A stretch of 64,000 bases of DNA, taken from the NCBI GenBank assembly GCA_013285465.1, contig CP053449.1:1634735-1698734 (forward strand). The letters are read 5' to 3'. Positions 16,757 through 46,300 of the stretch are shown piece by piece. The stretch is from Pseudomonadota bacterium. GTDB taxonomy: Bacteria; Pseudomonadota; Alphaproteobacteria; Micavibrionales; CSBR16-224. The notes under the pieces were generated by a model. The model was not told the origin of the DNA. It made no database searches and saw only the letters and a program-made list of their open reading frames with translations. A program made the position numbers and the translations under genes. The stretch's first letter is position 1, and each line of letters starts with the position of its first letter.

Positions 16757-17209
16757 ATGAAACCGAATATGTTTCGCAAATTGATGAATCTGTGGCCGCC
16801 CTTTCTGGGAGCGGGCATCAAAGTCAAAAATATTGACCCTGATTTCACAACCATTGATGTCGAGTTGAAACAGCGTTTTTACAATAAAAACTATGTCGGC
16901 ACACATTACGGCGGCAGTCTGTTCTCGATGACCGACCCGTTTTACATGCTGATTTTGATGAAACAGCTGGGCAAAGATTATATTGTCTGGGACAAAAGCG
17001 CCAAAATTGATTTTAAAAAGCCCGGCAAGGGTAAACTGACCGCGCATTTCAATATCACGCAGAAGCAAGTTAAAGATATTAAAGATCAGGCCGACAAACA
17101 GAAAAAAGTCGAACCGAAATTCACCGTACAGGTTCTGGATGAAAAAGGTGATGTCGTTGCCGAAATCGAGAAAACCCTCCATGTCCGCAGAAAAAGCCCG
17201 AAACCGTGA
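16757..17209 (+). CDS. DUF4442 / hot-dog-fold thioesterase-like protein
   Basis: WPPFLGAGIKV ... NYVGTHYGGSLFSMTDPFYMLILM pattern, which I recall as typical of the DUF4442 (YiiD C-terminal-like) family. Confidence 0.7.
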   Translation: MKPNMFRKLMNLWPPFLGAGIKVKNIDPDFTTIDVELKQRFYNKNYVGTHYGGSLFSMTDPFYMLILMKQLGKDYIVWDKSAKIDFKKPGKGKLTAHFNITQKQVKDIKDQADKQKKVEPKFTVQVLDEKGDVVAEIEKTLHVRRKSPKP

Positions 17210-17475
17210 TGAGCTGGACGGTCTATATTCTTCAATGCGCGGATAACAGCCTCTACACCGGTATCACGAATGATCTGGATAGCCGCATTGCCGCCCATGA
17301 AGACGGCAGCGGTGCAAAATATACCAGAGGGCGCGGTCCCTTCCGCCTTGTTTACAGGGAAGATTGCGCCGACCGTAGCCACGCCTCGAAACGCGAGCGA
17401 GACATCAAAAGCCTCAGCCGCGATGAAAAACTGCAATTGCTGCACAGCATGGATGGCAAATCAATCCGGCTGTGA
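17206..17475 (+). CDS. GIY-YIG nuclease family protein (UPF0213-type, stand-alone)
   Basis: WTVYILQCADNSLYTGITNDLDSRIAAHEDG..AKYTRGRGPFRLVY. The start overlaps the previous stop as GTGATG. Confidence 0.85.
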   Translation: MMSWTVYILQCADNSLYTGITNDLDSRIAAHEDGSGAKYTRGRGPFRLVYREDCADRSHASKRERDIKSLSRDEKLQLLHSMDGKSIRL

Positions 17476-17482
17476 TATAAGC

Positions 17483-18670: not shown

Positions 18671-18810
18671 GTGACATGCCGCCATAGCTTATCTTTTGCA
18701 TTCTCTCTGATATCCGCGTAAGATGGCTGCAGGAAAAAACATAAATGATTGCATAACGCAATTAATGATGCTTTCAAAGAAAAACAATTCCAATAAGCAA
18801 GTATCATTCC

Positions 18811-19266
18811 ATGGTCAAAAGAAATGAACATTCGAATCTGTCGCAGTGCCCTTTGGCCTGCGCGCTGGACATCCTTGGCGATCATTGGACATTGCTGATT
18901 ATCAGGAATCTGATGCTGTTCGGCTGCCATGAATATAAAGACATGCTCGCCATGCCAGAATCGATTTCCTCCAACATTCTGTCAAACCGCCTTAAAAAGC
19001 TGGAAAGTGTCGCCATTATTGCGTCGGCGCCGCATCCGGACAGCAAACGCCGGAAATTATATTACCTGACGGACAAAGGCAAAGATCTTGTTCACGCCAT
19101 TCTGGAGCTTGCCCGCTGGGCCAATCAACATATCGGTGACCGTACCTGCATTCCCGCAGCAGCACTACCGATCTTCGCGGCCTCCCGTGACGACGCCGCC
19201 CGCATGGTGCTGGAGAATCTCGCCGCCTGGGAGAGACAGAATCTTCCGCAAACAGAGAAGATCTAA
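18811..19266 (+). CDS. HxlR family transcriptional regulator
   Basis: CPLACALDILGDHWTLLIIRNL winged-helix signature. Confidence 0.85.
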   Translation: MVKRNEHSNLSQCPLACALDILGDHWTLLIIRNLMLFGCHEYKDMLAMPESISSNILSNRLKKLESVAIIASAPHPDSKRRKLYYLTDKGKDLVHAILELARWANQHIGDRTCIPAAALPIFAASRDDAARMVLENLAAWERQNLPQTEKI

Positions 19267-29659: not shown

Positions 29660-30664
29660 ATGTCTCTTAGAACAATTACTTTACTGACAGAGGGAGGCGC
29701 AAAAGCGCCATCCAAAAAACTGACACAGCATCAGGACGTTATCCAGTCATGGTCTTCCCAAAAAATGAAGAACAGCCCGCGTGAAACCCGCTTCCTGATG
29801 GATGCGGAACATATGCAGGATTTCGTTGACCTGATACAGCAGCAATATGGCAGAAAAAAAGATTGGCGTATCATCATAGCACCCGTTGAAACAACCGTGC
29901 CGCTGCTTGAAGAGAAACCGGAACCGGAATATAAAAATGCGAAGAAAAGCTATGGCAGCATTACGCGGGAAGTACTTTATGACAAGATTTTCACAGGCGC
30001 CGCAACCGATATGGATTTTCTGGCGCTGGTTATTCTTTCAACCATTGTCACCGCCATCGGTCTGATCACAGATAATGTTGCCGTTCTTATCGGCGCGATG
30101 GTCATTGCCCCGCTATTGGGACCAAACCTGGCCTTAAGTTTTGCGGTCACGCTTGGGGATAAGGATATGATCACGCGCGCTTTAAAGGCGAATGCCGCGG
30201 GTTTTTCATTAACAATGCTGCTGAGCATCCTTCTCGGCTTTTTTATACCTGAAGCACTCTTTATAGAAAGCAGCGAATTTATCGCCCGCACGGATGTCGG
30301 TTATGGCGGTATCATTCTGGCACTTTCCTCCGGCGCTGCCGCGGTCCTGTCTCTGACAAGCGGCGTTTCCACGACAATGGTCGGCGTCATGGTCGCCGTT
30401 GCATTGATGCCGCCGGCTGTTGCATTAGGACTTTCCTTTGGTTCCGGCCTTTTCACCGCAGCTTATGGTGCCGGTTTACTGCTTGCAATCAACATCATCT
30501 GCGTTAATCTTGCTGCAAAAGCCGTCTTTACATTGAAAGGCATTCGCCCGCGCACATGGTATCAGCGCAAAAAGTCAAAACAGTCCCTGAGGGTCAGCCT
30601 GTTTTTCTGGTTTAGCTTATTATGTGTTCTGATTGTTTTGATTTATCTATGGCATAATTTATGA
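29660..30664 (+). CDS. DUF389 / TIGR00341-family membrane protein
   Basis: Soluble N-domain followed by TM repeats with LIGAMVIAPLLGP and VMVAVALMPP motifs. Confidence 0.78.
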   Translation: MSLRTITLLTEGGAKAPSKKLTQHQDVIQSWSSQKMKNSPRETRFLMDAEHMQDFVDLIQQQYGRKKDWRIIIAPVETTVPLLEEKPEPEYKNAKKSYGSITREVLYDKIFTGAATDMDFLALVILSTIVTAIGLITDNVAVLIGAMVIAPLLGPNLALSFAVTLGDKDMITRALKANAAGFSLTMLLSILLGFFIPEALFIESSEFIARTDVGYGGIILALSSGAAAVLSLTSGVSTTMVGVMVAVALMPPAVALGLSFGSGLFTAAYGAGLLLAINIICVNLAAKAVFTLKGIRPRTWYQRKKSKQSLRVSLFFWFSLLCVLIVLIYLWHNL

Positions 30665-30681
30665 CGTTATTGATGACAGGC

Positions 30682-33600
30682 TTAACCGCCCTCCGCCTCC
30701 TGCAATAGCGCATCTTTCAACACATCGCTCTGCTTTTTATAGTAATCGGCAATATCGGAGAGCTGCTGCGTCGTGTTGCGCATATAAGCAATCTGCTCCT
30801 GCAGCTGCCCTGCCGCGGAGATTTCCTGAACAGGCTCTTGCTGCGGCTGGCTGCCATAAAGCGCCTGAAACAGCCTGTTATTCATCAGATTATCCGGAAA
30901 CGGATTACGCGGTGCGTTATCATGCTCCGCCTGCACAGCCACATCACCGGTTTCTCTTCGTTGCAAAGGACTATCCTGAGCCGTTGCTTGATCCGGTAAG
31001 ACATTTTGCGAATCCGGCGGCGCATCCGGCCCGTTAATATTGTCACGGATTTGCTGTGACAAACCATCTGCACCGTAAAATGCCTGCAAGAAGCCGTCAC
31101 GAGAAGAATCCGTTGCCTGCCGGATCAGTTCATTCTCACCGCCAAAGATATCGGGGCGCAGATTGTTCTGCAAGTAGTCCAGAATACCGAAATAGCGCCC
31201 GCTTGCTCCGCCTGCAGCCGTGTCAAAACCGCGACGACTGCCCGGCGTGCCGTCCGCCGCTCCCTCATCCGGTGGAATAAAGCCGTTGAACTCGATTTCA
31301 TCAAGCACATTCATAACAAAAGCCTGATCGAAAAATCCGCCATTGCCGTCACTGACCCGAATTGTCACATTGTGATTATCCTTTGTTTCAAAATCGACCG
31401 CATCCATCAGACGCAGCATATTGCCCGCAATAGTGAATTTACCGTCCGGATCATTTTGAATGCTGTAGGTAAAGCTGTCGCCCGGCAGATCGGCATCCGT
31501 TGCCGACAATGTTGCAATATCCCCGCCGATCGCCGTCAGCTCAGGCACATCGGTGCCGGACAACATCACCGCCGTCGGAAAATCATTGACCGGATTAATC
31601 ACCAGCGGCTTGGTATTGACGATACTGGTATAGCCGCTTGTATCAGACACGGTAAAGGCGAAACTGTCCGATGTTACTTCGCTGCCGTCATGCGCATAAA
31701 GCAAGCGCCCCGCATCAATATCTGTTTGCGTAAACATCCCGCCAAGTCCGCGTGCCTCTCCCGCGTCCAATGTGCTGTTGCTATTGGCATCAACGAACAA
31801 TGTTCCGGTATCCGGCGCATCCGTCACAGTATAAATGATATGCCCGCCGTAAACGATCTGCGTTTCCGTCTGATAGAATGTATTCGGACTGAAATGATTG
31901 CGGTATTCGGCCGCCACCCATGCGCCGCTGGTTGTGCCTTCATAAACGCGCAAATTATCATACAGCCCGTCGTAATAAAGATTGTTGCGTCCGCCATCAA
32001 AACTCGTCGCCTCCGATCCGTCACCGATAAAGGCATAACGCGTCCCGTTTCCCAGACCTGTGCCGCCATGCGAATTGATATCGCGCGCCACTTCCACCCC
32101 GTCGACATAGAGGATTTTATCCGTGCCGTCATAAACAGCGGCAATATGGTGCCAATTGCCGTCATTGACTTTTACACCGGTGGAATAAAAATCATCAACA
32201 CCCAAGCCATTCCCCGAAGTGGAGAATGCGACACGCCCGTCCCCGTGAATATAGACATTAAAAAATTCACTGCGGTCAAAATCAATCAACGACCAGTTAT
32301 CGTTATAATTTGATACATTCACCGTCGTATTCACCCAGGCACTGACGGAGATTTGCTGCAGCGAATTATTACCCGATAAACCGTAATCCAGCGCAATATA
32401 TTCGGAATTGTTAAATTCCGCCCCGCTGCCGAAAGCGCCAGCAATCTGATTATCGCTGTCAAAACCGTTGCGGCCAAAGCCGTTATGCGCCGCTTGTGAA
32501 CTGTCGCTGACCTGCACATCGAAATCGCTCTCAAAATGCCAAACACCACCATATTCGCCGCGCCATGTTGTTGTCTGGTTGGTTTCGGCGGCGCCCGCAT
32601 TGCCGTAATAAATATAAAAAACCGTATCCGTTCCGGCTTTCAGATCTCCGCGCGTATAAAGCTGCATGCTTTGCGTCGCTGTATTGAATGCCACCAGCTC
32701 ACGGTCAAGTTTGGTCAAACCATCCGCACCGGTCACGACAATATCGGAGCCGTCCACCTTCACATTGCCCCAGAAATCCGCACCGAAGCCTGATTCCGTC
32801 AAGAACAGGGCAAAATCATCCAAATCAGCATCGACCAGATCATGGTCAACCACGATTTTCTGACGATAAGTCCAGCTGTTATCATACCATGCCGCATCAT
32901 AGGATAGTTCCGTATTGGTAATCGCCGTCACAGCCGCTTCATCTGCCGATGTTGTCGTCAACACATCCAATGCAGGTGTGATTTCCAAATTGACCGTATG
33001 CGGTCCTGTCACATTTTCCGCATCGCTGACGGTAAAGGAAAAGCTGTCCGTGCTATTGGCACCCGCACCATGCGTATAGCTGATTTTGCCATCCAGCACA
33101 TCCTGCTGTGTAAAACTATCGCCCACAGACAACGCAGCGCCGCTTAAAAACAACGTGCCGTTGGAGGTCAGAGCCGTCAGCTCGTATAACAATCCGCTAT
33201 CAGGATCATTGATATCCGTTGCCGTCAACACATCCGTTGTTAAAACAAGACTGCCGCCCTGCCCCAGAACGCCGATCCCTGTTTCCACTTGCGGCGGGCC
33301 TTTAAGCCATTTATCGACGATATAATCATTAATGTCGCTAACTTCCTGCGCCGTCAGCGCATGATTCCACGACCAGAATTCGCCGATATTTCCCTGAAAA
33401 TGAGACCCTGAGCCAAGATTGGCATCGCCAACCGGTGTCTGGCTGTCATTGGAATGCCCGATCGTGACATTACCGCTATGTGAGCCAAGCGTATCCACCC
33501 GCGTCAAAACCTGCGCAGGGCCGCCATTCAAGCTGACGGAGAAAGTGCGGTTGTTGATATCGGCATCCGTTGCATCATGCACCGCCGTCACATAATAAAC

Positions 33601-34152
33601 CGTATTTGCCGTGACGGCGCCAAGATTAACGGATTTATAGCGATCCGCCGCCGACCAATAGCTTTCCCCCCATGTATAAACATACAAATCGCCGCCGACC
33701 ATAATGATATTATAACCGTTGGAGCCGCCGCCCTGTTCATACAGCATTTGCGTACCGCTAATATCCGCACCGGTTTCAAACACCATCGCGAATGATTTTT
33801 CACTGTAACTGCCGGTATTGATTTCCGTTGCATTGGCAATATCAAGATAATCGGAGGTGCCGTCAAAATTGATAGCGCCTCTGCCTTCAAAGCCTGCCGC
33901 ATCAAATCTCGGGCGGTTGCCGCCGCTGCTTGCCGCGTCATAATTATTGCCGCTATCATCATCCCAACGGTCGATCAACGCCCCGTCCGCCGGTTGATCA
34001 TTCGTCAAACCGTCACCATCAACATCCAGCGCATCAAAATGAAAAATCGTATTGGCAATCACGGGGAAAGAGGCATCAAGCAACACACGCTGTTCCAGCG
34101 CCATCAGCGTCATTTTTGACGTTTTCGCCTTTTTCTCCTTCTCCAAAAACAC
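30682..34152 (-). CDS. Large extracellular-type protein with two LamG (concanavalin-like) domains, DUF2341 and cadherin-like repeats; no Sec signal and no RTX repeats
   Basis: First LamG: INFDGTSDYLDI...FQGNIGEFWSWNHALT. DUF2341-like: WTYRQKIVVDHDLVDADLDDFALFL. Second LamG: VWHFES...WHHIAAVYDG...YDNLRVY. Cadherin repeat: LSATDADLPGDSFTYSI...HNVTIRVSDGNG. GTG start at 34152, with alternative ATGs at 34113 and 34104. Confidence 0.85.
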   Translation of the reverse strand: MFLEKEKKAKTSKMTLMALEQRVLLDASFPVIANTIFHFDALDVDGDGLTNDQPADGALIDRWDDDSGNNYDAASSGGNRPRFDAAGFEGRGAINFDGTSDYLDIANATEINTGSYSEKSFAMVFETGADISGTQMLYEQGGGSNGYNIIMVGGDLYVYTWGESYWSAADRYKSVNLGAVTANTVYYVTAVHDATDADINNRTFSVSLNGGPAQVLTRVDTLGSHSGNVTIGHSNDSQTPVGDANLGSGSHFQGNIGEFWSWNHALTAQEVSDINDYIVDKWLKGPPQVETGIGVLGQGGSLVLTTDVLTATDINDPDSGLLYELTALTSNGTLFLSGAALSVGDSFTQQDVLDGKISYTHGAGANSTDSFSFTVSDAENVTGPHTVNLEITPALDVLTTTSADEAAVTAITNTELSYDAAWYDNSWTYRQKIVVDHDLVDADLDDFALFLTESGFGADFWGNVKVDGSDIVVTGADGLTKLDRELVAFNTATQSMQLYTRGDLKAGTDTVFYIYYGNAGAAETNQTTTWRGEYGGVWHFESDFDVQVSDSSQAAHNGFGRNGFDSDNQIAGAFGSGAEFNNSEYIALDYGLSGNNSLQQISVSAWVNTTVNVSNYNDNWSLIDFDRSEFFNVYIHGDGRVAFSTSGNGLGVDDFYSTGVKVNDGNWHHIAAVYDGTDKILYVDGVEVARDINSHGGTGLGNGTRYAFIGDGSEATSFDGGRNNLYYDGLYDNLRVYEGTTSGAWVAAEYRNHFSPNTFYQTETQIVYGGHIIYTVTDAPDTGTLFVDANSNSTLDAGEARGLGGMFTQTDIDAGRLLYAHDGSEVTSDSFAFTVSDTSGYTSIVNTKPLVINPVNDFPTAVMLSGTDVPELTAIGGDIATLSATDADLPGDSFTYSIQNDPDGKFTIAGNMLRLMDAVDFETKDNHNVTIRVSDGNGGFFDQAFVMNVLDEIEFNGFIPPDEGAADGTPGSRRGFDTAAGGASGRYFGILDYLQNNLRPDIFGGENELIRQATDSSRDGFLQAFYGADGLSQQIRDNINGPDAPPDSQNVLPDQATAQDSPLQRRETGDVAVQAEHDNAPRNPFPDNLMNNRLFQALYGSQPQQEPVQEISAAGQLQEQIAYMRNTTQQLSDIADYYKKQSDVLKDALLQEAEGG

Positions 34153-34187
34153 GCACTCCTTTTGGGATGGACGACCCTTTGTCTATT

Positions 34188-34206
34188 TTAACATGAACAA
34201 TGTTAA
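34188..34206. promoter_or_regulatory. Palindrome TTAACAT-N5-ATGTTAA between the M50-fusion gene and the LamG gene
   Basis: TTAACAT (34188-34194), gaaca, ATGTTAA (34200-34206). It lies 36 nt upstream of the LamG GTG start. Confidence 0.3.
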
Positions 34207-34249
34207 CGCAGACTTAATTTACCTTTTTTTATAAACAGTTAAGCGGGTA

Positions 34250-36376
34250 TCATAGAGCAGATTCCCGCCCCCAGAATGCCGCCAGTTTCTGCCAGAATAT
34301 CCAAAGCACGCTTTCGGCAGAGCTTTCAAGGCGTACCATCCCCCGCACAACGCGCGGGTTTGGTGCAAAATCTTTGATATCCGCCTCTACGGAGAACTGT
34401 GCGGCATAAAGCCCGTAACGCGCTGTCAGACCTGTTTTTCCGGGAGTTTCATCTGTCGGAATAGCACCGCCGAATCTCGCCGAAAGCTCCGGCCAATGCA
34501 GGGTATCACTGCTGTTCTCTGCCAGTTTATCCAAGCGCACGGGAAAATTTTCCGCAAAATCCGTATCGGGATAAAACAATCCCGCACGACCGAGAGTAAT
34601 TTTTTCTCTTTTGTTTTCATGTATATATCCGCTAATTGTTAATATATCAGGCTGCACCAGAATACCCAACCGCTGCGCAGGATTGATCCAGCGTCCTTGA
34701 TGCATATCCCCCGCCACATCGGTTAATATGCCGGATAAATCCGCCTTGATAACCAGCCTCTGCTGCTGTTCGCGCAAGCCGGACAATTTTTGCGCCGCCG
34801 CCGCCAATTTTTCTGTCAACGGCTCTTGTTCGGGATGGTCGCGGGCAAGAATTTGCTGCTGGTTCCGCAATTTTTGCAGCGATTGATAGTCCAGCTCCGC
34901 CAATGCGATCTGCTGTTGCAATTGCGGCGATTCAATGACGGCCAGAACATCCCCTTTTTTCACCTGTTGCCCCGCCGTCATATTGACCTCAATCAGCTTT
35001 CCGGCAACCGGTGTGTAAAGATGCGTATATGCGGCGCTATGCAGTACTGCGGGAATAGTGATCTTATGCGCACGCGGCATAGTGACCGCCACAAATACGC
35101 CAATGATAACGCACAAACTGATCAGGCTGTGGAGAGAATGGTATGATTTTTGCCGTTGCCGCCACCAGACGGTCACTTCCCGCCAGATTGGCAGAGCAAT
35201 AAACCATGCGATTTCCACAACCATCAGAAAGATATTCAAAGGCGGAAAAAACAGCGCAAAAACCACCCAGGCAATCCCCAAAAACAGGAACAAACGGTAT
35301 ATCCAGAGCGCAAAACCGAAAGACTGAAAAAAGCGCCGCTGCCGCAAAGGAATATCTTCCGGAACATCATCTTTCCAGCCCCATAACATGCGGCGCAAAC
35401 GCCATTTTGCCCAAAGACAGGCACGGTCCTGAAGATTTTCAATACCCAATACATCGGAAAGCAGATAATACCCGTCAAATTTCATCAACGGATTGAGATT
35501 GACCAGCAAGCTTCCGGTAAGAGAAACCAGCGCCACAAAGAAAGCAGTGCTTTTTCCAAGACCTACGGGAAGAAAACGCCACAGTAGCAGCGCAATAGCG
35601 GCCAGACTGATTTCAGTCAACACGCCTGCCGCCGCAATCGCCACACGCTTGCGCCTGTCGGTCAAAGACCATACACCCGTTGTTTCCGTGTATAACACAG
35701 GATAGAGAACAATAAAGGCCACACCGATGACCGGAACTTTGACCCCGTATTTTGTCGCCGTATAGGCATGCCCCAATTCGTGCAGCGTTTTCACGAAAAC
35801 TGTTGTCAGCGCAATCAGCGTAGCGCCTTCCCAATTCAGAATATTCTGAAAGCTGTGCAGAAATTCATCCATACGCTGAAATGTCATCAACAGCCCCGCC
35901 GCCAGCAGACAAAGCATCATCAGCATAAAGCGCTGCGATAATAACGGACGCAGCAATGGCAGGCTGCGTTCCAGAAAATTTTGCGGCTTAAAAAGCGGGA
36001 GCGTTACAAAAAGATAGCCGTGCAACGCCCTCTTCCAAAAAGGTTTTTCCGCGCGCTTAGTGCGCCTCTCATGTTGCGCAGATGACTGCGCTGTATTGCC
36101 TTGCACAAGCTGATTTCTCACCAGAAATACCGATAAATCTTCTACCGTTTCCGTATCGATTGTCAGCGTTGTTTCCGCATTAACAGCCCGGACAAGGTCA
36201 TCCGGCCGGCGGCAATCCGCCAAACGGCGCAGACATTCAAAAGCCGTCCAGCCGATTTTATAAAAGCGGTGTGCCAGCGGATCATAAATAACCCAATGCG
36301 GGGCACCATCCGCACCGGAGGCGGTTTTATCGATTTTTAAATCTTCCCGCAATAACGGCAGATCACCTTTTGCCAT
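34250..36376 (-). CDS. Fusion protein: PqqD/RRE-like N-domain, M50 site-2-protease membrane core and a C-terminal HlyD-like periplasmic adaptor domain
   Basis: HELGH is encoded at 35768-35782 and NLNPLMKFDG at 35474-35500 (the S2P HExxH and NxxPxxxxDG motifs). There are multiple TM segments. The C-terminal lipoyl/coiled-coil pattern is VAGKLIEVNMTAGQQVKKGDVLAVIESPQLQQQIALAELD. Confidence 0.85.
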   Translation of the reverse strand: MAKGDLPLLREDLKIDKTASGADGAPHWVIYDPLAHRFYKIGWTAFECLRRLADCRRPDDLVRAVNAETTLTIDTETVEDLSVFLVRNQLVQGNTAQSSAQHERRTKRAEKPFWKRALHGYLFVTLPLFKPQNFLERSLPLLRPLLSQRFMLMMLCLLAAGLLMTFQRMDEFLHSFQNILNWEGATLIALTTVFVKTLHELGHAYTATKYGVKVPVIGVAFIVLYPVLYTETTGVWSLTDRRKRVAIAAAGVLTEISLAAIALLLWRFLPVGLGKSTAFFVALVSLTGSLLVNLNPLMKFDGYYLLSDVLGIENLQDRACLWAKWRLRRMLWGWKDDVPEDIPLRQRRFFQSFGFALWIYRLFLFLGIAWVVFALFFPPLNIFLMVVEIAWFIALPIWREVTVWWRQRQKSYHSLHSLISLCVIIGVFVAVTMPRAHKITIPAVLHSAAYTHLYTPVAGKLIEVNMTAGQQVKKGDVLAVIESPQLQQQIALAELDYQSLQKLRNQQQILARDHPEQEPLTEKLAAAAQKLSGLREQQQRLVIKADLSGILTDVAGDMHQGRWINPAQRLGILVQPDILTISGYIHENKREKITLGRAGLFYPDTDFAENFPVRLDKLAENSSDTLHWPELSARFGGAIPTDETPGKTGLTARYGLYAAQFSVEADIKDFAPNPRVVRGMVRLESSAESVLWIFWQKLAAFWGRESAL

Positions 36377-36379
36377 CCC

Positions 36380-37720
36380 CTATACTCCCAGAAAGCGGCG
36401 CAGGGAAATCAAGGGTCGCCTGAACAGGCTGTAAGCCAGCAGGCTACGCCCGCCATAAATTTTTGCCGTCCCTGTCAGACCGATACGCGCCGCCTCACCT
36501 CCGTCAAAAGCGGCACGGATTTTATAAGTCAGCAAACCGTCAGCATCCATTGATGACTGATAACTAACGGTTTTCAGATATGCCTGATGTTTTTTCAATG
36601 GGGCAGTATTCAGGAAAAACGCCACCGGTTCCGCCTCGTCAATCGTCAGCATCGCATCTACGGGAACACGGATCAGCAGTTCCGTGTCATGCGGTGCTGC
36701 CAGCATCATAATCTTATCTCCCGTCCGCACAGGGCGGCCGCGCAAATCATTTTTATCGGAAAAAACCGCCACACCGTCACGTGGCGCCGTCATTACAGAT
36801 TGCGCAAGAAGCTGCCGCGCATAGCTTAATTCCTGCTGCCGCAAGGCGATTTCCGCCCGCAGCGCCGCCAGTGCCTGTTTTTTCTCCGGTGCCGTGATGG
36901 ATTCCCGCTCCGCTTTCGCCAGCACAGCCTGCGCCATAATCTGCCGGTGTTCCGCCTCCGCCACCTGACTGCGCAAAGCCGTATCGTCAATTTTTGCCAA
37001 GACCTCGCCCTGCTTGACCAGCGTATTGGGCTCAACCGGTATATCTGCCAATGTACCGTCAAAGGGGATGCTGATGACATAAGGGTCTTTTGCCACAATT
37101 TCCGCCGGTGCCGTCACCGCCAATCTGACCGGCCAGCACAGCACCGCCAATACGGACAGTGCCAGAATTTTTCCTTTCCAACCGCGCAACTTCTTGCTGC
37201 CGCCCTGCGTCAAAGCCTGCATGCCGTAACCGTAAGCATCTGCCAATTCATCCAGCAAGACTTTATCCAAAGCTGCAAAAGCCTCTTCCCGGTCTATCCA
37301 TAAAGCGCCTGTTACATTGCCATTCCGGTCATATAATGCCATCAATGCCGCATTGGCAGAGCACCATGTTTGCCAGTTTTTCTTATCCGCCCCTTCCGCA
37401 TCTTTTGCATCTTTTGCAGTCAGAATGCGTACAGCATCCTCCTCCTGTTGCGGCACATGCCGCGCAATAAAATCCGATAACCACAACAGATAAGGACTGT
37501 TTTTTTCCGTCTCTGTCAGGCCGGAAACCGTTTCAATACCGTTATCCCGCGTCCAGAGTAACGCTTGACGGTAGGGAACAAGACGGTAAGTTTCATTCAC
37601 CATCATAAATGCCAGCTCTGCCGCCGTCTTTTGACTGCGGGACTGCCGTTGCAACGAAAGCAGCAGAAGCAGCTTTTCAGCCTGCGCATCTATTTTTTTC
37701 GGATTTTTTTTACTCATCAC
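36380..37720 (-). CDS. Membrane-fusion (HlyD/RND-adaptor family) protein with a cytoplasmic, GAF-like N-domain of about 175 aa
   Basis: One TM (ILALSVLAVLCWPV), then FDGTLADIPVEPNTLVKQGEVLAKIDDTAL, a coiled coil, and VMTAPRDGVAV. Overlaps the upstream gene by 8-11 nt. Confidence 0.8.
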   Translation of the reverse strand: MMSKKNPKKIDAQAEKLLLLLSLQRQSRSQKTAAELAFMMVNETYRLVPYRQALLWTRDNGIETVSGLTETEKNSPYLLWLSDFIARHVPQQEEDAVRILTAKDAKDAEGADKKNWQTWCSANAALMALYDRNGNVTGALWIDREEAFAALDKVLLDELADAYGYGMQALTQGGSKKLRGWKGKILALSVLAVLCWPVRLAVTAPAEIVAKDPYVISIPFDGTLADIPVEPNTLVKQGEVLAKIDDTALRSQVAEAEHRQIMAQAVLAKAERESITAPEKKQALAALRAEIALRQQELSYARQLLAQSVMTAPRDGVAVFSDKNDLRGRPVRTGDKIMMLAAPHDTELLIRVPVDAMLTIDEAEPVAFFLNTAPLKKHQAYLKTVSYQSSMDADGLLTYKIRAAFDGGEAARIGLTGTAKIYGGRSLLAYSLFRRPLISLRRFLGV

Positions 37721-39155
37721 CCAAATCCTGCGGTACGTCTTCAGGATTTGCCGCCACTTTCAAGCCGATAAAGCCGAGCGGAGTTTTCTTGCGTGCGGCC
37801 CCGACATCAAAAATTGCCTTACCGCCCATACCGGGAAGCAGCTCCTCCTGATAAGATGACATCTCCGCAACGATTTCCGCCGTCTGACTGACCGGATCAA
37901 CTTTACCATGGACACGAATGACATGCGCCGGATATGTTTTACCGCTTTCCTCCACATAAACATCAAACGGCGTGCCGACATTCAGCCAGCGCAGCCAAAC
38001 AGACGGCACCAGAAATTGCAACAGCAGCGGTTCATTTGAAGAAATTTCCATCAACACACGCCCGCGTTCCGCGTATTCATAGGGGCTGGCCAACCTGTTT
38101 GTCACGCGCCCGTCAAACGGCGCCTTGATCGTGCAAAGAGAAATACGTTCTTCAACCTGCGCCAGGCGCGCCTGTTCTTGTGCCACGCTTTCCTGTGCCG
38201 CAATATATTCAATTTCGGATAATGTCCCTAATTTGCGCAATTGCTTTTTGGCTTTCAGTTCGGCATCAGCCAGACGCAGCGCCGCGTTTTTCTCATTGTA
38301 AAGCGCCTCTTCCATCGCACAGTCGAAACGCGCCAAAATATCTGCGGCAGAGAAAACATCACCGTTCTGGAAGGGAAAATCGAGAATTTTACCGCTCATC
38401 AGGCTTGAAATAACGGCCTGTCTGCGCGCGATCAGAACAGATTGCACTTCATGTGTCTCAACAGGTGCGTCGGACAAAGCCGGCAAGGCTTCCGCCGTTG
38501 CCGTTTCTACCGGATTATCCCCTGCTGCAGGCGCAATTTGCGCAAAAGTTTCAATATCATCCAGAACTTTTTGCATCGGGCTGAACTCTGGTGTGTTCTG
38601 CGCTTGCGCCGCACCCATTGCAATAACGGATACGGGTTGTGCAACTATTGTCTCGCGCGGCGAGACAGAGAAGAAAAATTTGCGCGATGATGCAAACTCA
38701 ACGGCTTTTTCCCCAAAGTTGTTAACCTTTTGCACAGCCGTTAGAACCGTATGGGAAGCCCCCAGCGTGAGAGGTGCATAAGCGTCAGCCACCTGTTGTT
38801 TGACCGCTGTCAGATCAGGCGCTTCCAGTTCCGTCACTTTCTGAACAAGCTGTTCCTGCAGAAGCGCCGTTTTCTCAAGTGCTTTCTGTCCCGCATCCCG
38901 CGCAAAAACGCCAAATGCCTGTAGTTTTTGTCCTGCAACGGCAGGCACGCGCCGCCAATCATCCTTATTGAACAAAAGCGGGTCGGACAATACCAGCATT
39001 AACCCCAGAACTGCGCCAAACAACACACAGGCAACAAACAGCGCACGGGTTTTACCCGTCGCCGTTTTGCGCTGCGCCTGTCCTGCGGATTTTCGTCCGA
39101 AGGGGGCGGCCTTGTTTTTTCCTCCCGATGCATCGAGCATAATGTCTCTTCGCAA
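37710..39155 (-). CDS. Membrane-fusion (HlyD family) protein with a long periplasmic spacer
   Basis: N-terminal TM (ALFVACVLFGAVLGLMLVL), a spacer of about 190 aa, then SGKILDFPFQNGDVFSAADILARFD, a coiled coil, and IKAPFDGRVT. Confidence 0.8.
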   Translation of the reverse strand: MRRDIMLDASGGKNKAAPFGRKSAGQAQRKTATGKTRALFVACVLFGAVLGLMLVLSDPLLFNKDDWRRVPAVAGQKLQAFGVFARDAGQKALEKTALLQEQLVQKVTELEAPDLTAVKQQVADAYAPLTLGASHTVLTAVQKVNNFGEKAVEFASSRKFFFSVSPRETIVAQPVSVIAMGAAQAQNTPEFSPMQKVLDDIETFAQIAPAAGDNPVETATAEALPALSDAPVETHEVQSVLIARRQAVISSLMSGKILDFPFQNGDVFSAADILARFDCAMEEALYNEKNAALRLADAELKAKKQLRKLGTLSEIEYIAAQESVAQEQARLAQVEERISLCTIKAPFDGRVTNRLASPYEYAERGRVLMEISSNEPLLLQFLVPSVWLRWLNVGTPFDVYVEESGKTYPAHVIRVHGKVDPVSQTAEIVAEMSSYQEELLPGMGGKAIFDVGAARKKTPLGFIGLKVAANPEDVPQDLGDE

Positions 39156-39178
39156 CCTTTCATTTACCGATGCGGTGT

Positions 39179-40696
39179 TTACAACACCGTATCAAGCTGT
39201 GTCAGGTGATATTTTTCGTCTTCTTTTTTTTGTTCTTCTCCGTCTTGGCTTCCGGCATTCTGCCAAATATCCACGCCCAAGCTGTTCAACATGCGTGCAT
39301 AAGCATGTTGTGCTGCCTGATAGGCAAAACTTCTGTCCCATTGCAGCAGAGCATAATCGAGCTCCGTGTTGAGAACACTTAAATCACTGCCTAGACCCGC
39401 CTCGCGCTTGCGCGTCGCGCTACGCAAAATCTTCCGGTAATTATCCGCCTGTTCATCCATTTTTAAAAACTGGCTGCGGCTTTCTTCCAGCTGCTGTTTT
39501 GCGACATGAACCTGCGCAATCACCGCAACCAACAAGGCATAACGCTGCTTATCAGACAGCGCTTTTTTGTTCTTGGCCTGTTCATAACGCTGCGGCAGTG
39601 TAAACAAATCCATCAGCATTGCGGAAAGCGATACCGAGAAATTCGCCCAGTCCTGATCGGATAGAAAGGAATTCGTATCTTTGTTCAGCCCCAGAAAGAA
39701 GCGCGCACCCGGCAAAACCTCCAGCACAGTGGTTTTGATATCACGCAGGGCGATACGTTCTTTCAAAAAAGCCTCTTTGATTTCAGGGCGGTTCATCAGC
39801 GCTGTTTCCTGCAGCTTTTCGCTGTCCTGCTCCAGCTTGGGAAACTCTGCGGATGTCAGCCAATTTTCCCGCGGCAAATGCAACGTCACTTTATCTTCGG
39901 GTGACAACCCGACCAGTGTCTTCAGCTCCAGCATCGCTTGCGCAACATCGCGGCGCTTTTCCGCCAGCGCGTTGCGCTTGCGAAGCAATTCCTCTTTTTT
40001 CTGCAAACCGCTTTCATACGGGATGACGCCTTTTTGTATGGCCTGTTCCAAATCCGCCAACCGCCCGTCAGATTCTTTCAGCAACGCGGCATGTTTCTCT
40101 GCTGTTTCCTGTTCCGCCGCAGCGCGCCAGAAGGCAACATAGACATCCTGTGCCAGATTTTGCAGCACTTTGCGGCGGCGTTCATGTGCAATCAGCACGC
40201 GATCAGATGCCGTACGTGCATGGGCAACTGTGACGGCGGCATCCAGAATATTCCAGCTCGCTTCCAATTGCGCCGTGCGGCGGTGCCTGTCTGTGGAAAT
40301 GGATGGTTCCAGTGATTGCATTCCCGTTAAAGCCGAACGGCTAGATGACGCACCTGTATTACTGCGTCCCTGATAGGATGCGCCGGCTTCGATCTGCGGC
40401 AACAGGCTCAATTTTTCGATATTGTATTCACCGCTGCGAAGCAGCTCTTCCATCAGCGCGACCTGCACATCCAGATTGCGTTTCACAGCCAGATCAAGCG
40501 CCTGATCCAGCGTCATCTGCAAGATGCCGTCATTTTTCTGTGCGATGACTTCCAAATCGCTGCGCAGTTTTTCCGTGTATTCCCGATCCCCCATCGGCGC
40601 AGTCGCCGTCGAACAGGCCGTCAAAAACAACAGCTCGGACATCAGTAAAAAAAAACTGCCAAGACGAAAAAAATTTATGCTGGAATAAAGACCCAT
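39179..40696 (-). CDS. TolC-like outer membrane efflux lipoprotein (OMF family)
   Basis: Lipoprotein signal with lipobox LLFLTAC. TolC-type N-terminus LTLDQALDLAVKRNLDVQVA and two OEP repeats. ATG at 40696; the longest ORF (TTG) reaches 40717. Confidence 0.85.
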   Translation of the reverse strand: MGLYSSINFFRLGSFFLLMSELLFLTACSTATAPMGDREYTEKLRSDLEVIAQKNDGILQMTLDQALDLAVKRNLDVQVALMEELLRSGEYNIEKLSLLPQIEAGASYQGRSNTGASSSRSALTGMQSLEPSISTDRHRRTAQLEASWNILDAAVTVAHARTASDRVLIAHERRRKVLQNLAQDVYVAFWRAAAEQETAEKHAALLKESDGRLADLEQAIQKGVIPYESGLQKKEELLRKRNALAEKRRDVAQAMLELKTLVGLSPEDKVTLHLPRENWLTSAEFPKLEQDSEKLQETALMNRPEIKEAFLKERIALRDIKTTVLEVLPGARFFLGLNKDTNSFLSDQDWANFSVSLSAMLMDLFTLPQRYEQAKNKKALSDKQRYALLVAVIAQVHVAKQQLEESRSQFLKMDEQADNYRKILRSATRKREAGLGSDLSVLNTELDYALLQWDRSFAYQAAQHAYARMLNSLGVDIWQNAGSQDGEEQKKEDEKYHLTQLDTVL

Positions 40697-40755
40697 AGAG
40701 ACCAAATTTTCTAACAATTAGGGGCGGCAGAGAAGCCGAGCGAAAGCCTAGAGAA

Positions 40756-40769
40756 TGCATAATTATGCA
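40756..40769. promoter_or_regulatory. Perfect 14-bp palindrome TGCATAATTATGCA (operator candidate) just downstream of the putative -10 of the TolC/MFP/M50 operon
   Basis: Perfect dyad at 40756-40769. It extends imperfectly to 22 bp (AGAaTGCATAATTATGCAcTCT). Confidence 0.35.
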
Positions 40770-40776
40770 CTCTTTC

Positions 40777-40804
40777 ATTTTACGCTCTTCTCCATACAGG
40801 TCAA
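40777..40804 (-). promoter_or_regulatory. Sigma70-like promoter candidate for the TolC/MFP/M50 operon (TTGACC-16 nt-TAAAAT)
   Basis: On the minus strand, TTGACC is at 40804-40799 and TAAAAT at 40782-40777, with a 16-nt spacer. It is 80 nt upstream of the ATG at 40696. Confidence 0.4.
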
Positions 40805-40916
40805 TATGTTAGTAATTTTTTAACAATTTATGTGATAAAGGCGACTTAAAAAAAGCCGCCTTTCACGCCCCTGTCCGGCAGAGGCATCGTTAATACGCTG
40901 AAAAACCTTCTTCGCC

Positions 40917-41165
40917 TTAGGCGGCTTCGGTTTTTACGATAATTTCCAGCATTTCGTCTTTCAGCGACAGACGTGTCTTTTTCAGATCTTCCAGACGCTC
41001 GTCACTGGCGGCTTCAATTTCTTTTTCGATGCGTAAAATTTCTTTCGTCACATCTTCATATTCATCGAAAAGCTTTTTAAAATGGGCATCCGCCGTTTTC
41101 AGCGTGTGGATTGCTTCTTTATGTTCCGGCAGTTCATGTACCAAATCGTGATGTTCTTCCAACAT
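40917..41165 (-). CDS. DUF465 (YdcH-like) family protein
   Basis: 82-aa coiled-coil protein with HHDLVHELPEHKEAIHTLKTADAHFKKLFDEY, typical of DUF465. Confidence 0.85.
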   Translation of the reverse strand: MLEEHHDLVHELPEHKEAIHTLKTADAHFKKLFDEYEDVTKEILRIEKEIEAASDERLEDLKKTRLSLKDEMLEIIVKTEAA

Positions 41166-41245
41166 AGTGTTTTCCTTTCATTTGCGGTGATTCCAAGGGA
41201 GTTTAAAGCCTGCGGCCTCAAAAATAAAGCATTATGACAGAAAAA

Positions 41246-42502
41246 TCACGCCATCATCCCAAAACGGCGGATAGCTTCATAACCCAGCCCCAGACCGACA
41301 CTAGACAGCTTATTCTCCTCAGATATCTCCGCCTGTGGAAATTTGGCTGCGATTGTTTCTTTCAACAATGGTACCTCTGTCGTACCGCCCGTCAAAATAA
41401 TCAATTCCACCGCCTCTTCTGCGATTTGCGCCTGCCGCAAACAATCATCAATATCGGCAATAATCGCACGCACATGTTTCTCCACCGCATCATTAAAAAC
41501 GCTGCGCGCCACAGTAACGGAAAACGCCTCCTCTACAAAATCAAGCGATGCCGTCACTTGCAAATGCTCCGTCAGTCCGATTTTACAATCTTCAACCGCC
41601 GCCAAGAGCTGATGGCCTTTTTCCTCCTCCAGCAATTTGATATAGCGTGAAAACTTTTCCGGCGCATGTGACTGCGGCAAAATATCCCGCATCTGCTTGT
41701 GCATTTTCGGCGTGTATAAAAAGTTGATTTTCGACCATTCGGACATGTCATGGAACGGCACAGCCGGAAGCGGTAGGTTTTTCTCGCCGTAATCCGTGCC
41801 GTATCCGAAATCGGGCATGAAGGCACGCAGACTTAAATCCTTGTCAAAATCATTTCCGCCAATACGGATACCGGAATTGCCGAGAATGTCATCCGTGCGG
41901 TCAGCTTTATCCATCACATCCTGCGCCAGACGAATGACGGTAAAATCCGATGTACCGCCTCCGATATCGGCAACAAGTGCCAGTTTTTCAGATGGAAGAT
42001 TTCTTTCATGCGCAAAAGCGGCCGCGATCGGTTCATACTGAAAAGCGACATGTTTAAACCCGACGGCTTGCGCGATATTCTGCAATTCGTCCTGCGCACG
42101 ACTATCGGTTTTGCTGTCATTATCGGCGAAATGCACGGGTCTGCCCATAACGACATTTATCATTTCAACGCCGCTGTGCTGCTCTGCCACAGCTTTCATA
42201 TGGCCGATAAAATCACCCAGAACATCTTCAAATTTCTTCAGCTTTCCATTTACCACCGTGCCGTCATTCATCAGGCTGGTACCCAGAATACGTTTCAGAC
42301 TGCGCATGAAACGCCCCTCTTCCCCCTCCATAAAAAGCTGCATCGCCTGTTTGCCGAAACAGGGCTGCGGCGCAACGGCAGAATAGAAAACGGCACTCGG
42401 AATCGTTATGCCGTCCTCTTCCAGAGGCACAAGCGTCACGGCGCGTTCCCTGCAAAGGGCAAGCGTTGAATTCGAGGTTCCAAAATCAAGACCGCAATTC
42501 AT
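41246..42502 (-). CDS. Hsp70-family ATPase (YegD-like)
   Basis: GLDFGTSNS phosphate-1 motif, DIGGGTSDFT phosphate-2 and LTGGTTEVP. About 420 aa with no substrate-binding domain. Confidence 0.88.
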   Translation of the reverse strand: MNCGLDFGTSNSTLALCRERAVTLVPLEEDGITIPSAVFYSAVAPQPCFGKQAMQLFMEGEEGRFMRSLKRILGTSLMNDGTVVNGKLKKFEDVLGDFIGHMKAVAEQHSGVEMINVVMGRPVHFADNDSKTDSRAQDELQNIAQAVGFKHVAFQYEPIAAAFAHERNLPSEKLALVADIGGGTSDFTVIRLAQDVMDKADRTDDILGNSGIRIGGNDFDKDLSLRAFMPDFGYGTDYGEKNLPLPAVPFHDMSEWSKINFLYTPKMHKQMRDILPQSHAPEKFSRYIKLLEEEKGHQLLAAVEDCKIGLTEHLQVTASLDFVEEAFSVTVARSVFNDAVEKHVRAIIADIDDCLRQAQIAEEAVELIILTGGTTEVPLLKETIAAKFPQAEISEENKLSSVGLGLGYEAIRRFGMMA

Positions 42503-43320: not shown

Positions 43321-46300
43321 TCAGAAACTGCCGACAATATTGAAGAAAACACCGCGGCTTTGATAATCAAGATTGGTCAGATCATCCGAGAAATCCGTGA
43401 AGTTATAACCGACGCCCAGTTTGACATTCTCGTTAAAATGCCGGTACACGCCGATCAAGCCGCCGGCTTTTGCGTCACCGGCATCTTTGGCATCAAGATA
43501 GCGCAGCTCACCCGTCACATCCCATTCATGCACCACATGCCAGTCAGCACGTGCCACGCCCAGCCATGCCGTGCTACTGAACCACGGCGTACCTGCCGCC
43601 GTCGTATCACGCAATTCGCCGACACGGTATCCCAACTTGCCGCCCACCGATAGTTTAGGAAACAGATCATAAATAAAATCGCCCGAGAAGACATGACTGC
43701 GCTGTTCATAGCCGTTTGCAGCACCTGTGCCAGAGACTTGCCCCGGGCTACCCTCATCAGACAAATAAGTGTAACGCACCAGCGCATTCAATTTGTCGTT
43801 CAAAACGGGGCGGTAGCCAAAGCCCATATTCAGCTCGGTAAAATTCGCATCCGTCGTGCTACCTGTACCCGCATCGCTGAGAGCAACATCCAGTCCGCCC
43901 GAGAAACGCCAATCTTCCGAAACCTGATAGGCCAGCGTATTTTTCATCAGCCATGATGTTCTGTCACCTGTCGTATTGCCGCTTTCTTCGCGCCATTCCA
44001 GCGTACCGCCATAGCGGACTTTATCGCGGGTATAACCTGCGGAGACGGAGGCCGCAATCCGGTCAAGATCACCGGTTGCCGGGTCAGAGGTTTTTCCGGT
44101 TTCAAATTTACCGCCCCATGTCCAGCGGTCGCTGGCAGCAAGGTCCAGCCCCATCGCATGCATAATGCCGGACTGCCCCTGCTGCGCATGCAGATAACGC
44201 TGCTCGGAAAATACCGACAAATTATCAGTATAGCGGGAGCGCGTTCCCGCCACGAGCGTATTGCTGCGCCCGTTATTGCCCGTATCAGTGCGCCCTGTGT
44301 CAGACAGATAATTGATATAATGGCTGGTACGGTCGTCCACACGGTAATCCAGCCCCGCCTTGCCGCCGAGACCGTCATCGCCGCCTGTCAGTTCGCCGCT
44401 GATTTCCAGCCGGTCATTCAGGCGGAATAAACCGCCGCCGCCGTAACGGTCATTGCCCAGCCGCGTCGTATCACGGTGCAGCGTTGTTTGCGCAAGGCCG
44501 TAAATTTCGTAACGCCCCGGCGTGCCCTCTTCCGTCAACGGCGCATAACCAAGTTTTACAAGCGCGTCCGTCCGCTGCCCTGTTTGCGCCAGCACCGTAC
44601 TACCGCCTGCCGCCAGCGCCGTATCACGGTCATCATGCCGCGCGCCGAATGTCAGCGTTGTTTCCTGTGACAATGCGTAATCCACACCCGCCTCGACCGC
44701 TTTATAACTGCCGGTCGTTTTGCCTTCCTTGAAATCGGCCTTCGCTGTGAAATCCAGCCTGTCCGACACCGGCAGACGGAGCATACCGCCTGATTGTTCT
44801 ACGCCTTCATTTGTCAGCTGCCCCGGCGCGGAAAAGCCGTTTTGCCTGTTCAGCCAATATCCCGATAATGTCCCGTTTTGTCTGCCATCCGTCAGTTCGG
44901 CAAAATCAGCGGCAATCTCTATACGGTGCGCATCCGCATCAATACCCGCCGTTCCCGTTTGCGGGATAGCGCCAAAATTGAAACCGCCATTCTGTGAGGA
45001 CATGCCGCCTGTTCCCGGACCGTCAGAACGTGCGGTTTCCAGTTTTAGATATGTGCCGGGTTTGTAACGCAGCGTCATATCCGCCCCCAAAAGGCTTTGC
45101 TGCCTGCCTGTACCTTTTTGTTCATAACCTGATGCGCCAACCCGCAGATGATCATTCACCCAATGGCTGACGCGCCCGCCTTTTGTCATGTTATCAACGG
45201 AAGAAACGCCGGGGGTAAATTCATAGCCCGCGACAAGATAAACCGGATTGCCGCCTTGTGTGCCGTTCAGGATGAAGGCGGAAATACCCGCCGTTGATTC
45301 CAGCGGCGTGCTTAAAATAACGCGCCCTTGAATATAATTGATGTCGTAATCCTGTCCGTAAATCAGTGTTTTGGATTCCAGTACGATACCTGAATCCTGA
45401 TCGCGCACCTCAACACGCAGCCTTTCCGAGCCGATGACCAAATCCTGATTGCGCAAATAGTAAAGTGACCCGCCCGTGCCGCGGAATTCTTCAATCGCAT
45501 CTAATGTGCCGGGATCGGCCGCGAACAGATCAAGCTCCGTACGTTTTTCACCGAAAGCCGTTGTTGTCATACTGCCGTGATGCGCTTCGGCACCGTAAAG
45601 CGTACGGCTGAAATTCATCAGATCGGTTCCCGTCAATCGGGTCTGAAAACTGCCCCATAGAACTTTCGTATCGTTTTTTTCAACCTTCACATAGAATTTT
45701 CCCAAAGTCGGCGCATCTTCGATCAGCGTGGAATCATCGCCGTAAACCGGATAATAAGCACTAGGGTCAAGGCGGCGCAGCAGGCTGCGGGCATCTTTTT
45801 CATCGAATTGCGAAAAAATATCCTCAAGCGGTTTTTCCTGTGTATCGGCGCTGGAAGTCACTTGCCAGCCATTCTTCAATTTGCCTTTGGTGTAATAGGC
45901 CAAACGCCCTTCGGCATATAGTTTTTCATTATAGCGATCGCTGTTTTTTCCGGTCACCAGCGCCGCCGGGCCTTTCACATCATTCAGCCCCATCGTCAGA
46001 TCCGCAATCCCGACAGTGAACCATTCCTGCGACGGAATATTGATATGACGATTGAATTCCGCACGGCCGCCATCCGTTTTTTCAAGCACCACATCAACAT
46101 CGTGATCGCCTGCGGGCAGTATCTGCTCCACGGCAAATTTACCCTGCGTATCCACCGGAACCGGCTGCCCCATTACCAGAACCGTTTCCCCTGCGGCGAT
46201 ACCATCACCATTCACCGTCACCGTGCCGCCATGAACCGGAATATTGCGCAAACCGATATGGTTCTCCCCATATCCCGTCAACATCTCGCGTGTTTTGCCT

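Follow-up and report, generated by a model that had tools for sequence, protein, structure and literature searches.

A five-gene bacterial module with an intramembrane protease-adaptor fusion and a giant LEPR-XLL adhesin: a candidate type-I-like export apparatus

We analyzed a 64,000-nucleotide stretch of DNA from an alphaproteobacterium of the Micavibrionales (GenBank assembly GCA_013285465.1, contig CP053449.1, positions 1,634,735 to 1,698,734; hereafter the window) and, within it, a minus-strand gene cluster encoding an outer-membrane factor (OMF), two membrane-fusion proteins (MFP-A and MFP-B) and a 708-aa protein in which an RRE-like domain, an M50/site-2 protease and a HlyD-type adaptor are fused. 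The locus is a five-gene module rather than a four-gene one, and its fifth product is a probable cargo, an adhesin-like protein with an N-terminal LEPR-XLL motif. On balance, sequence comparisons and structure models lead us to favor the view that the module is a dedicated type-I-like, Sec-independent export and processing apparatus for this adjacent LEPR-XLL giant adhesin. The putative cargo has no Sec, Tat or RTX signal, yet it is adhesin-like and linked to an OMF and three adaptors, so type-I-like export is the simplest reading. The inner-membrane member combines a leader-recognition domain with a relationship to leader peptidases, which extends this to a reading of export and processing.

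Organization and conservation of the module

The OMF gene (39179-40717(-), 512 aa), which encodes a TolC/NodT-like protein and probable lipoprotein, is followed by the genes for MFP-A (37710-39155(-), 481 aa), a single-pass periplasmic adaptor with a long low-complexity linker, for MFP-B (36380-37720(-), 446 aa), which consists of a GAF-like domain, a transmembrane segment (TM) and a HlyD-type adaptor, and for the RRE-like, M50/site-2 protease and HlyD-type adaptor fusion (34250-36376(-), 708 aa). Between successive genes there are a 23-nt gap, an 11-nt overlap (8 nt if an alternative start is used) and a 3-nt gap. The coordinates of the open reading frames (ORFs) agree with the tight co-directional packing described in the original prediction, which had taken these four genes as the complete unit. 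The four genes stand, but the unit is one gene longer: the ORF at 30682-34152(-), 97 nt 3' of the fusion gene and on the same strand, also belongs to it and encodes the probable cargo, a cadherin-like/LamG repeat protein of 1156 aa with a LEPR-XLL domain.

A scan of one genome per species yielded at least 299 confirmed relatives, and 80 loci were kept; the locus counts given here come from our own ORF calls and iterated profiles and cover 82 loci. The surveyed loci span the Alpha-, Beta-, Gamma- and Zetaproteobacteria, Nitrospira (including the N. defluvii chromosome), Desulfobulbaceae, Magnetococcales and single cells of Pelagibacteraceae, with Pseudomonas, Halomonas, Stutzerimonas, Rhizobium, Methylobacterium, Variovorax and Phytobacter among the cultured genera. 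The gene directly before the fusion gene is MFP-B in 65 of 75 evaluable loci, MFP-A precedes MFP-B in 56 of 64, and the OMF precedes MFP-A in 48 of 55; the order OMF, MFP-A, MFP-B, M50-HlyD is kept in about 87% of evaluable cases. The original prediction had proposed a survey of whether TolC and two MFPs accompany M50-HlyD fusions, and at each of these steps they mostly do.

An ORF of at least 700 aa abuts the cassette in 55 of the 82 loci. Where the N-terminus of the flanking giant lies within the locus, the LEPR motif is present in 28 of 36 cases, and the eight motif-negative flanking ORFs are mostly on the opposite strand or unrelated. Giants beside homologous cassettes range from 938 to >6596 aa and are adhesin-like, with cadherin, Ig-like and LamG domains. 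For example, a fusion homolog with 41% identity stands in the order OMF, MFP, MFP, M50-HlyD and is followed by a cadherin protein of >6596 aa starting MIPLEKRLLLDAS. Independent gene calls with precomputed Pfam annotation gave OEP, MFP, MFP and M50, followed by Cadherin_3 giants of 3058 and 2927 aa that start MAGKKKSKIKKVQQALEKRTMLDAAA and MDQKKKLRIGKLEKRLMLDAS, respectively.

As a reverse test, metagenome contigs were scanned with a degenerate DNA pattern for sequence encoding ALEPRIMFDGAA, which returned 81 stretches with a median length of 6.4 kb. Cassette genes were found in 23 of the 81. Among the 19 motif-anchored stretches with at least 7 kb of upstream DNA, the cassette was there in six, co-directional or divergent, and in all four with at least 11 kb of downstream DNA it came after the giant gene of about 9 kb. 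The link between giant and cassette therefore holds from the motif side too. A 50-aa profile of the motif matched 21 short fragments only in the protein database.

The module moves as one unit. In IncF plasmids of E. coli, the four genes come after a gene for a 4459-aa 'Ig-like domain-containing protein' starting MTTIKNRRLRPRAHRFALESRQLFDGAA, and the block lies between ISKpn26 and IS1 as a unit of about 20 kb (NZ_CP081687.1, 44829-64580). No transporter is listed for the 69-kb E. coli plasmid in the PLSDB gene table, which is incomplete. The same five-gene block is carried by an 80-kb Kosakonia plasmid, and the module also lies between insertion sequence (IS) elements on Citrobacter and Hafnia plasmids. 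In Azospirillum brasilense, the four plasmid-borne genes come after one for a giant 'DUF4347 domain-containing protein'. The E. coli fusion gene (>=99% identity) is present in 24 of 5426 complete E. coli genomes and is mostly plasmid-borne. Cassette proteins bear generic names in PGAP annotation, the adaptors being called efflux adaptor subunits. On the Kosakonia plasmid, three tandem 'tail fiber protein' genes of about 675 nt lie directly after the fusion gene on the same strand (17128-19235).

Predicted properties of the module proteins

The fusion protein matched Peptidase_M50 (PF02163, 28.9 bits), Biotin_lipoyl_2 (37.2 bits) and HlyD_3 (25.9 bits) in Pfam, and hydropathy indicated about seven TMs. 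Its AlphaFold2 model, with a mean predicted local distance difference test score (pLDDT) of 83.6, comprises an N-domain (residues 14-87) in which three strands lead into three helices, a helical membrane part (148-432) and an adaptor (438-705) with an alpha-hairpin (484-539) and beta-barrel domains. The zinc-binding/catalytic motif HELGH (residues 199-203, 35768-35782(-)) sits within helix 182-209 of the model. The second site-2 protease signature with its Asp ligand, NLNPLMKFDG (residues 293-302), lies at 35471-35500(-). The original prediction had placed the first motif correctly and made the range of the second 3 nt too short. Across 76 homologs with 35-96% identity to the window protein, H199, E200 and H203 are invariant, as are N293, P296, F300, D301 and G302; the protease site is therefore under selection. 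Profile searches against PDB sequences matched the HExxH region to the Methanocaldococcus jannaschii site-2 protease MjS2P (3b4r, 2.9e-5) and placed the adaptor part nearest HlyD (8dck, 5e-16), then MacA and EmrA. Pfam scanning found no PDZ or CBS domain in the fusion. These results support an M50/site-2 protease with an intact predicted active site.

Over residues 28-386, the best NCBIfam match was to the daptide_HExxH family (NF041824; E 4.6e-42, 144.5 bits against an equivalog cut-off of 300 bits), and a weaker match was obtained to YydH/LiaK (NF058609; 35.8 against a cut-off of 225). By both score and context, the fusion is a relative and not a member of the daptide and YydH equivalogs. 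In the daptide family, an RRE is fused N-terminally to an intramembrane site-2 protease, and removal of the leader peptide is RRE-dependent (PMC10028931). The RRE identity of the N-domain, at about residues 10-100, is supported mainly by homology to peptidases of RiPPs (peptides that are made by ribosomes and modified after translation) and by the model. The three-part architecture named in the original prediction was thus confirmed by the Pfam matches, the daptide homology, the model and the invariant motifs. When the hidden Markov models that it had proposed were run on the four proteins, M50 scored above its cut-off (28.9 against 27.2 bits), OEP and MFP matches were obtained, and the M50 identity stands. 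None of the four cassette proteins has a model of its own in NCBIfam release 20.

At least 924 proteins in the database, about 710 aa long, share the fusion architecture. The RRE-M50 half alone matched 2151 clusters (50% identity) at E<=1e-30, and the best 150 of these matches are nearly all about 700 aa long, so that the adaptor tail is present in them. Near relatives are labeled uncultured Alphaproteobacteria, JGI names the homologs 'putative peptide zinc metalloprotease', and PGAP names distant plasmid homologs 'PqqD family'. A more distant clade, found in Rhodobacterales, Rhizobium, Methylosinus and Thalassospira, shares 23-29% identity with the fusion; its members carry PqqD family, M50 or site-2 protease annotations, and their matches run into the adaptor region.

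The OMF matched PF02321 (OEP) at 109 bits in two stretches. The LTAC of its LLFLTAC sequence fits a lipobox, which upholds the earlier description as a TolC-like lipoprotein. MFP-A matched HlyD_3 (51.6 bits) and TIGR01730 RND_mfp (105 bits against a cut-off of 94.9), and MFP-B matched HlyD_3 (34.6 bits). Hydropathy gave one TM in each, at the N-terminus of MFP-A (residues 38-56) and at about residues 181-203 of MFP-B (hydropathy 185-203), in agreement with the two single-TM MFPs of the original prediction. With the C-terminus of the fusion, Pfam and NCBIfam count three MFP domains in the cassette. The AlphaFold2 model of MFP-B (mean pLDDT 94.1) shows an alpha/beta domain (12-172), the single TM and a MacA-like adaptor, with an alpha-hairpin at 247-306 in the periplasmic HlyD-type part. 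Pfam matched GAF in six and GAF_2 in four of 59 MFP-B homologs (best E 1.2e-5); the isolated N-domain of the window protein had no Pfam match at E<=10. From the model, we read residues 12-172 as a putative cytoplasmic GAF-like sensor or docking domain. In Foldseek searches, the closest structures were MacA, EmrA and AcrA for the adaptor domains and MacA, EmrA and MexA for the MFP-B model. The full-length models of the fusion and MFP-B returned MFP structures alone from the PDB (MacA, EmrA, AcrA, MexA), and nothing for the RRE, site-2 protease or GAF-like parts.

The probable cargo contains Cadherin_3 (105 bits), Laminin_G_3 (76.6 bits) and Cadherin (34 bits) matches. Hydropathy revealed no TM or hydrophobic signal segment, and there was no Sec or Tat signal. 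The window protein has no GGxGxD (RTX) repeat, and none or at most four were found across 35 cassette-linked giants. Its N-terminus reads KKAKTSK-MTLMA-LEQRVLLDAS, in which a Lys-rich stretch precedes the LEPR-XLL motif (MTLMA-LEQRVLLD, 34075-34113(-)), and residues 14-73 match the LEPR-XLL model NF012209 at 20.6 bits against a cut-off of 17. Over 35 loci, the motif takes the form hh-A-L-E-[PQSK]-R-[ILMV]-[MLV]-[FL]-D-[GA]-A-A-x-A-T after a net-basic stretch, and its variants (an LE[KQ]R..LDAS clade and LEPR..FDGA clades) track phylogeny. The nearest relatives of the window locus (L004, L005, L171 and L174) have the variant LE[KQ]R[LVT][LM]LDA[SA], at 34075-34098 in the window, as against the commoner LEPRxxFDGA, and a LamG-like region directly follows the motif in the window protein and in L004.

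A weakly conserved element is also present at the C-terminus (in the window cargo at 30685-30810(-), NTTQQLSDIADYYKKQSDVLKDALL...). Its pattern, P-x-[FL]-[ST]-x-Q-[LVM] with L-x-x-A-L about 10-15 residues on, occurs within the final 60 aa in 13 of the 18 LEPR-XLL giants that are complete; it was picked after the data had been seen, matches 2.5% of internal windows and fits the window cargo loosely only. This element might be a second, C-terminal signal.

Proposed export route and alternatives

In the proposed route, the adhesin would bear a short N-terminal leader, composed of a basic stretch and then the LEPR-XLL motif. The cytoplasmic RRE-like domain of the 708-aa protein would bind this leader, and the fused site-2 protease would cut it at the cytoplasmic face of the inner membrane; in this reading, the RRE-protease recognizes the leader and probably cleaves it. 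The periplasmic adaptor domain of the fusion would join MFP-A and MFP-B to form a periplasmic tunnel that docks on the TolC-like channel, and the GAF-like domain of MFP-B may gate the process on a small ligand. Energy might come from the proton-motive force via the polytopic domain, or from Ca2+-dependent extracellular folding of the cadherin/Ig repeats acting as a ratchet. Four elements of this route are inferences: the giant's role as cargo, binding of the LEPR motif by the RRE, cleavage of the leader, and assembly of the three adaptors into a single mixed ring.

In the current view of tripartite MFP/TolC machines, adaptors surround an energized pump of the ABC, RND or MFS type. In the 64-kb window, neither Pfam searches on about 40 ORFs nor jackhmmer searches for ABC and RND proteins, run with the window ORFs among the targets, turned up an ABC, RND or MFS gene in the operon or elsewhere, just as originally predicted. 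The sole transporters in the window are a KefB-like Na/H exchanger (13826-15574) and MgtE (10953-12239). Within +/-10 kb of the cassette, ABC ATPase profiles matched 11 ORFs in 9 of the 82 loci; these are small (230-540 aa), scattered and importer-like, and all lie outside the cassette, one of them being an Mla lipid-transport pair. RND genes occur in two of the 82 loci, and no other polytopic protein recurs near the cassette. A displaced ABC partner in the window was rejected, as there is none in the 64 kb and none conserved in related loci, and the neighborhood survey suggested in the original prediction indicates that the lack of a partner is systematic. The earlier proposal that the intramembrane protease occupies the position of the pump is supported by these data, and the fusion takes the place expected for the inner-membrane partner of a tripartite system.

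Two hallmarks of type I secretion are present, a TolC-family OMF and a HlyD-type MFP, but of a cognate ABC gene encoded with the MFP there is none in the window, none within the cassette at the 82 loci and none listed on the 69-kb E. coli plasmid. As for the C-terminal signal, RTX repeats number none or at most four in the 35 giants, and a different, weakly conserved C-terminal element is present. Because no cognate ABC gene is found in cis, the locus is a variant of the tripartite type I kind that stands outside classical type I.

Bacteriocin and microcin exporters (CvaAB-TolC, PCAT1) are type I systems with a peptidase-containing ABC transporter. The module resembles them in the N-terminal cargo leader, the leader peptidase within the inner-membrane component, the MFP with a TolC-type channel and the Sec independence, all predicted for the module. 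It differs in having a zinc site-2 protease with an RRE in place of a C39 cysteine peptidase, no nucleotide-binding domain, three different adaptors instead of one, and a putative cargo of 1,000 to >6,500 aa rather than <~100 aa. With LapA/LapBCE (and LapG/LapD), SiiE/SiiCDF and HlyA/HlyBD-TolC it shares a giant repeat adhesin beside its OMF and MFP genes, an MFP domain closest in sequence to HlyD, and a conserved terminal cargo element. In contrast to these, the module has no ABC transporter and no RTX nonapeptide repeats, its conserved signal (LEPR-XLL) is N-terminal, and its protease is intramembrane and MFP-fused, whereas LapG is periplasmic.

The RRE and site-2 protease part is homologous to daptide MpaP and YydH/LiaK; unlike MpaP, the fusion has about 270 additional C-terminal residues that form the HlyD-type adaptor. 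TriABC-OpmH of Pseudomonas aeruginosa also has more than one distinct adaptor per outer-membrane channel, and PDB 6vej was among the profile matches, but TriC is an RND pump, whereas the module has three adaptor-type proteins and no pump. RseP, SpoIVFB and MjS2P have the same catalytic core of HExxH and NxxPxxxxDG within transmembrane helices; the fusion differs from them in having no PDZ or CBS domain and no regulator substrate nearby, and in being joined to an RRE and an MFP.

Several points weigh against export and processing by the module itself, a model built as a whole on comparative genomics and structure models. The Pfam score for M50 is marginal relative to its cut-off and spans residues 193-266 only. 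The direct sequence signal for an RRE is weak: Pfam PqqD matched 3 of 22 N-domains at E 0.14-0.19, the isolated N-domain of the window protein had no Pfam match at E<=10, and searches of the N-domain against PDB sequences, as a single sequence and as a profile, returned nothing relevant. No large ORF flanks the cassette in 27 of the 82 loci within the DNA covered, and 13 of the 19 motif-anchored stretches with at least 7 kb upstream had no upstream cassette; in those 13, the cassette may stand on the far side of the giant gene, or else some LEPR-XLL proteins have no linked cassette. No motor is recognizable in the module. Besides ABC, RND and MFS pumps, energizers of the PET/AaeB type are known in tripartite systems. 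According to PMC8277102, characterized tripartite systems all have an ABC, RND or MFS energizer. A LEPR-XLL giant of Vibrio whose C-terminus bears RTX and serralysin-type domains is mentioned in PMC10868602, and some members of the LEPR-XLL family may use a classical ABC-driven type I system.

The last two points also bear on the main rival, in which the cassette supplies only the leader peptidase, adaptors and channel, and an unlinked ABC or other transporter moves the giant across the inner membrane. Besides the energized partner of the characterized systems and the Vibrio domains, which are typical of ABC-driven type I substrates, this explanation could draw on the C-terminal element of the giants as a type-I-like signal, and the energizer searches covered neighborhoods rather than whole genomes. 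However, an exporter-type ABC gene is adjacent in none of the 82 loci, and the five genes travel without a transporter on IS-flanked plasmid segments in E. coli, Citrobacter, Hafnia and Kosakonia. Moreover, the ABC and MFP genes of type I systems are normally linked and mutually specific. We consider an unlinked transporter unlikely, though it deserves to be taken seriously.

The GAF-like domain of MFP-B, the adhesin-like nature of the giants and the regulated cleavage typical of site-2 proteases would also fit a tether-and-release arrangement parallel to LapA/LapG/LapD. Here the RRE/protease would keep the LEPR segment held in the inner membrane, with the adhesin exposed through the tunnel, until GAF-gated intramembrane cleavage frees the adhesin; the separate conserved C-terminal element could then lead export, as in type I substrates. 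Yet an exporter and an energy source would still be needed, so this arrangement refines export and processing by the module and does not replace it. LapG and LapD genes were found neither in the window nor at the annotated plasmid loci, and no such genes are conserved nearby. We regard it as improbable.

A system that matures and exports small, RiPP-like peptides, or one for drug efflux, with the giant gene incidental, would agree with the JGI and PGAP names and with the matches to the YydH/LiaK and daptide models, but it is very improbable: those scores are far under the equivalog cut-offs, no RiPP precursors, tailoring or modification enzymes or other conserved genes were found beside the cassette (precursor ORFs <70 aa were not searched), the presumed substrate is giant rather than a short peptide, and the LEPR-XLL gene is the single consistently linked partner; a RiPP exporter was rejected on the lack of conserved tailoring enzymes. 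Equally hard to credit is an envelope-spanning signaling device working by regulated intramembrane proteolysis of an anti-sigma factor or similar, as for RseP and SpoIVFB, which membership in the M50/site-2 protease family would allow and which was rejected because genes for sigma, anti-sigma or transcription factors are not conserved next to the cassette in the 82 loci, because the PDZ and CBS domains of signaling site-2 proteases are missing, and because it leaves the OMF and three MFPs without a role. The original prediction had offered a proteolysis-coupled export conduit or a signaling device; the former was retained and made specific by the adjacent giant as putative cargo, and the latter was not supported.

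Flanking features and significance

A promoter-like sequence, TTGACC-16-TAAAAT, lies 5' of the OMF gene at 40777-40804(-) and coincides with the upper bound of 40804 given in the original prediction. It is a sigma-70-type consensus match only, the best in 30000-41500 with 10 of 12 positions, and such matches are no commoner across the region than in shuffled sequence. Just upstream of the cassette on the same strand are a DUF465 gene (40917-41165(-), 82 aa) and an Hsp70/MreB-like gene (41246-42502(-), 418 aa), neither of which is conserved in this position at other loci. Outside the cassette, two further genes for large surface proteins share a 4-nt overlap (43321-47472(-) and 47469-55232(-)); one product, of 1383 aa, has an OmpA domain at its N-terminus and shows a weak beta-barrel match at its C-terminus, and the other, of 2587 aa, is a DUF7933/SdrD_B/DUF11 repeat protein that carries a classical signal peptide. 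A 970-aa ORF (55367-58279(-)) matches phosphoenolpyruvate carboxylase only partially and weakly (PF00311, 78.8 bits, residues 127-579).

In the open full-text literature, which leaves most subscription journals outside its scope, we found no description of this architecture, and LEPR-XLL and DUF4347 are mentioned in passing only. The earlier remark that M50-HlyD fusions have no demonstrated function is in keeping with this, as no functional work was found there and the combination of 'site-2 protease' and 'HlyD' gave no result.

The module belongs to a large, phylogenetically broad family that does not fit the pump-centered tripartite picture, with an intramembrane protease in the place of the pump and no conserved energizer nearby. 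We put forward tentatively, as a possibility rather than an expectation, that it represents a new Gram-negative secretion pathway, in which an RRE-site-2 protease-adaptor fusion would recognize and cleave the LEPR-XLL leader and, together with two adaptors (one with a GAF-like sensor) and a TolC-like channel, move megadalton-class adhesins over both membranes without an ATPase, driven by the proton-motive force or by extracellular Ca2+-dependent folding. Since the module is present on natural E. coli plasmids, this is directly testable with standard genetics. If true, it would give a function to the LEPR-XLL tag, which is carried by many of the largest bacterial proteins, and an export route to giant adhesins that have no Sec signal, and the RRE leader-recognition logic of RiPP biosynthesis would have been reused in protein secretion.

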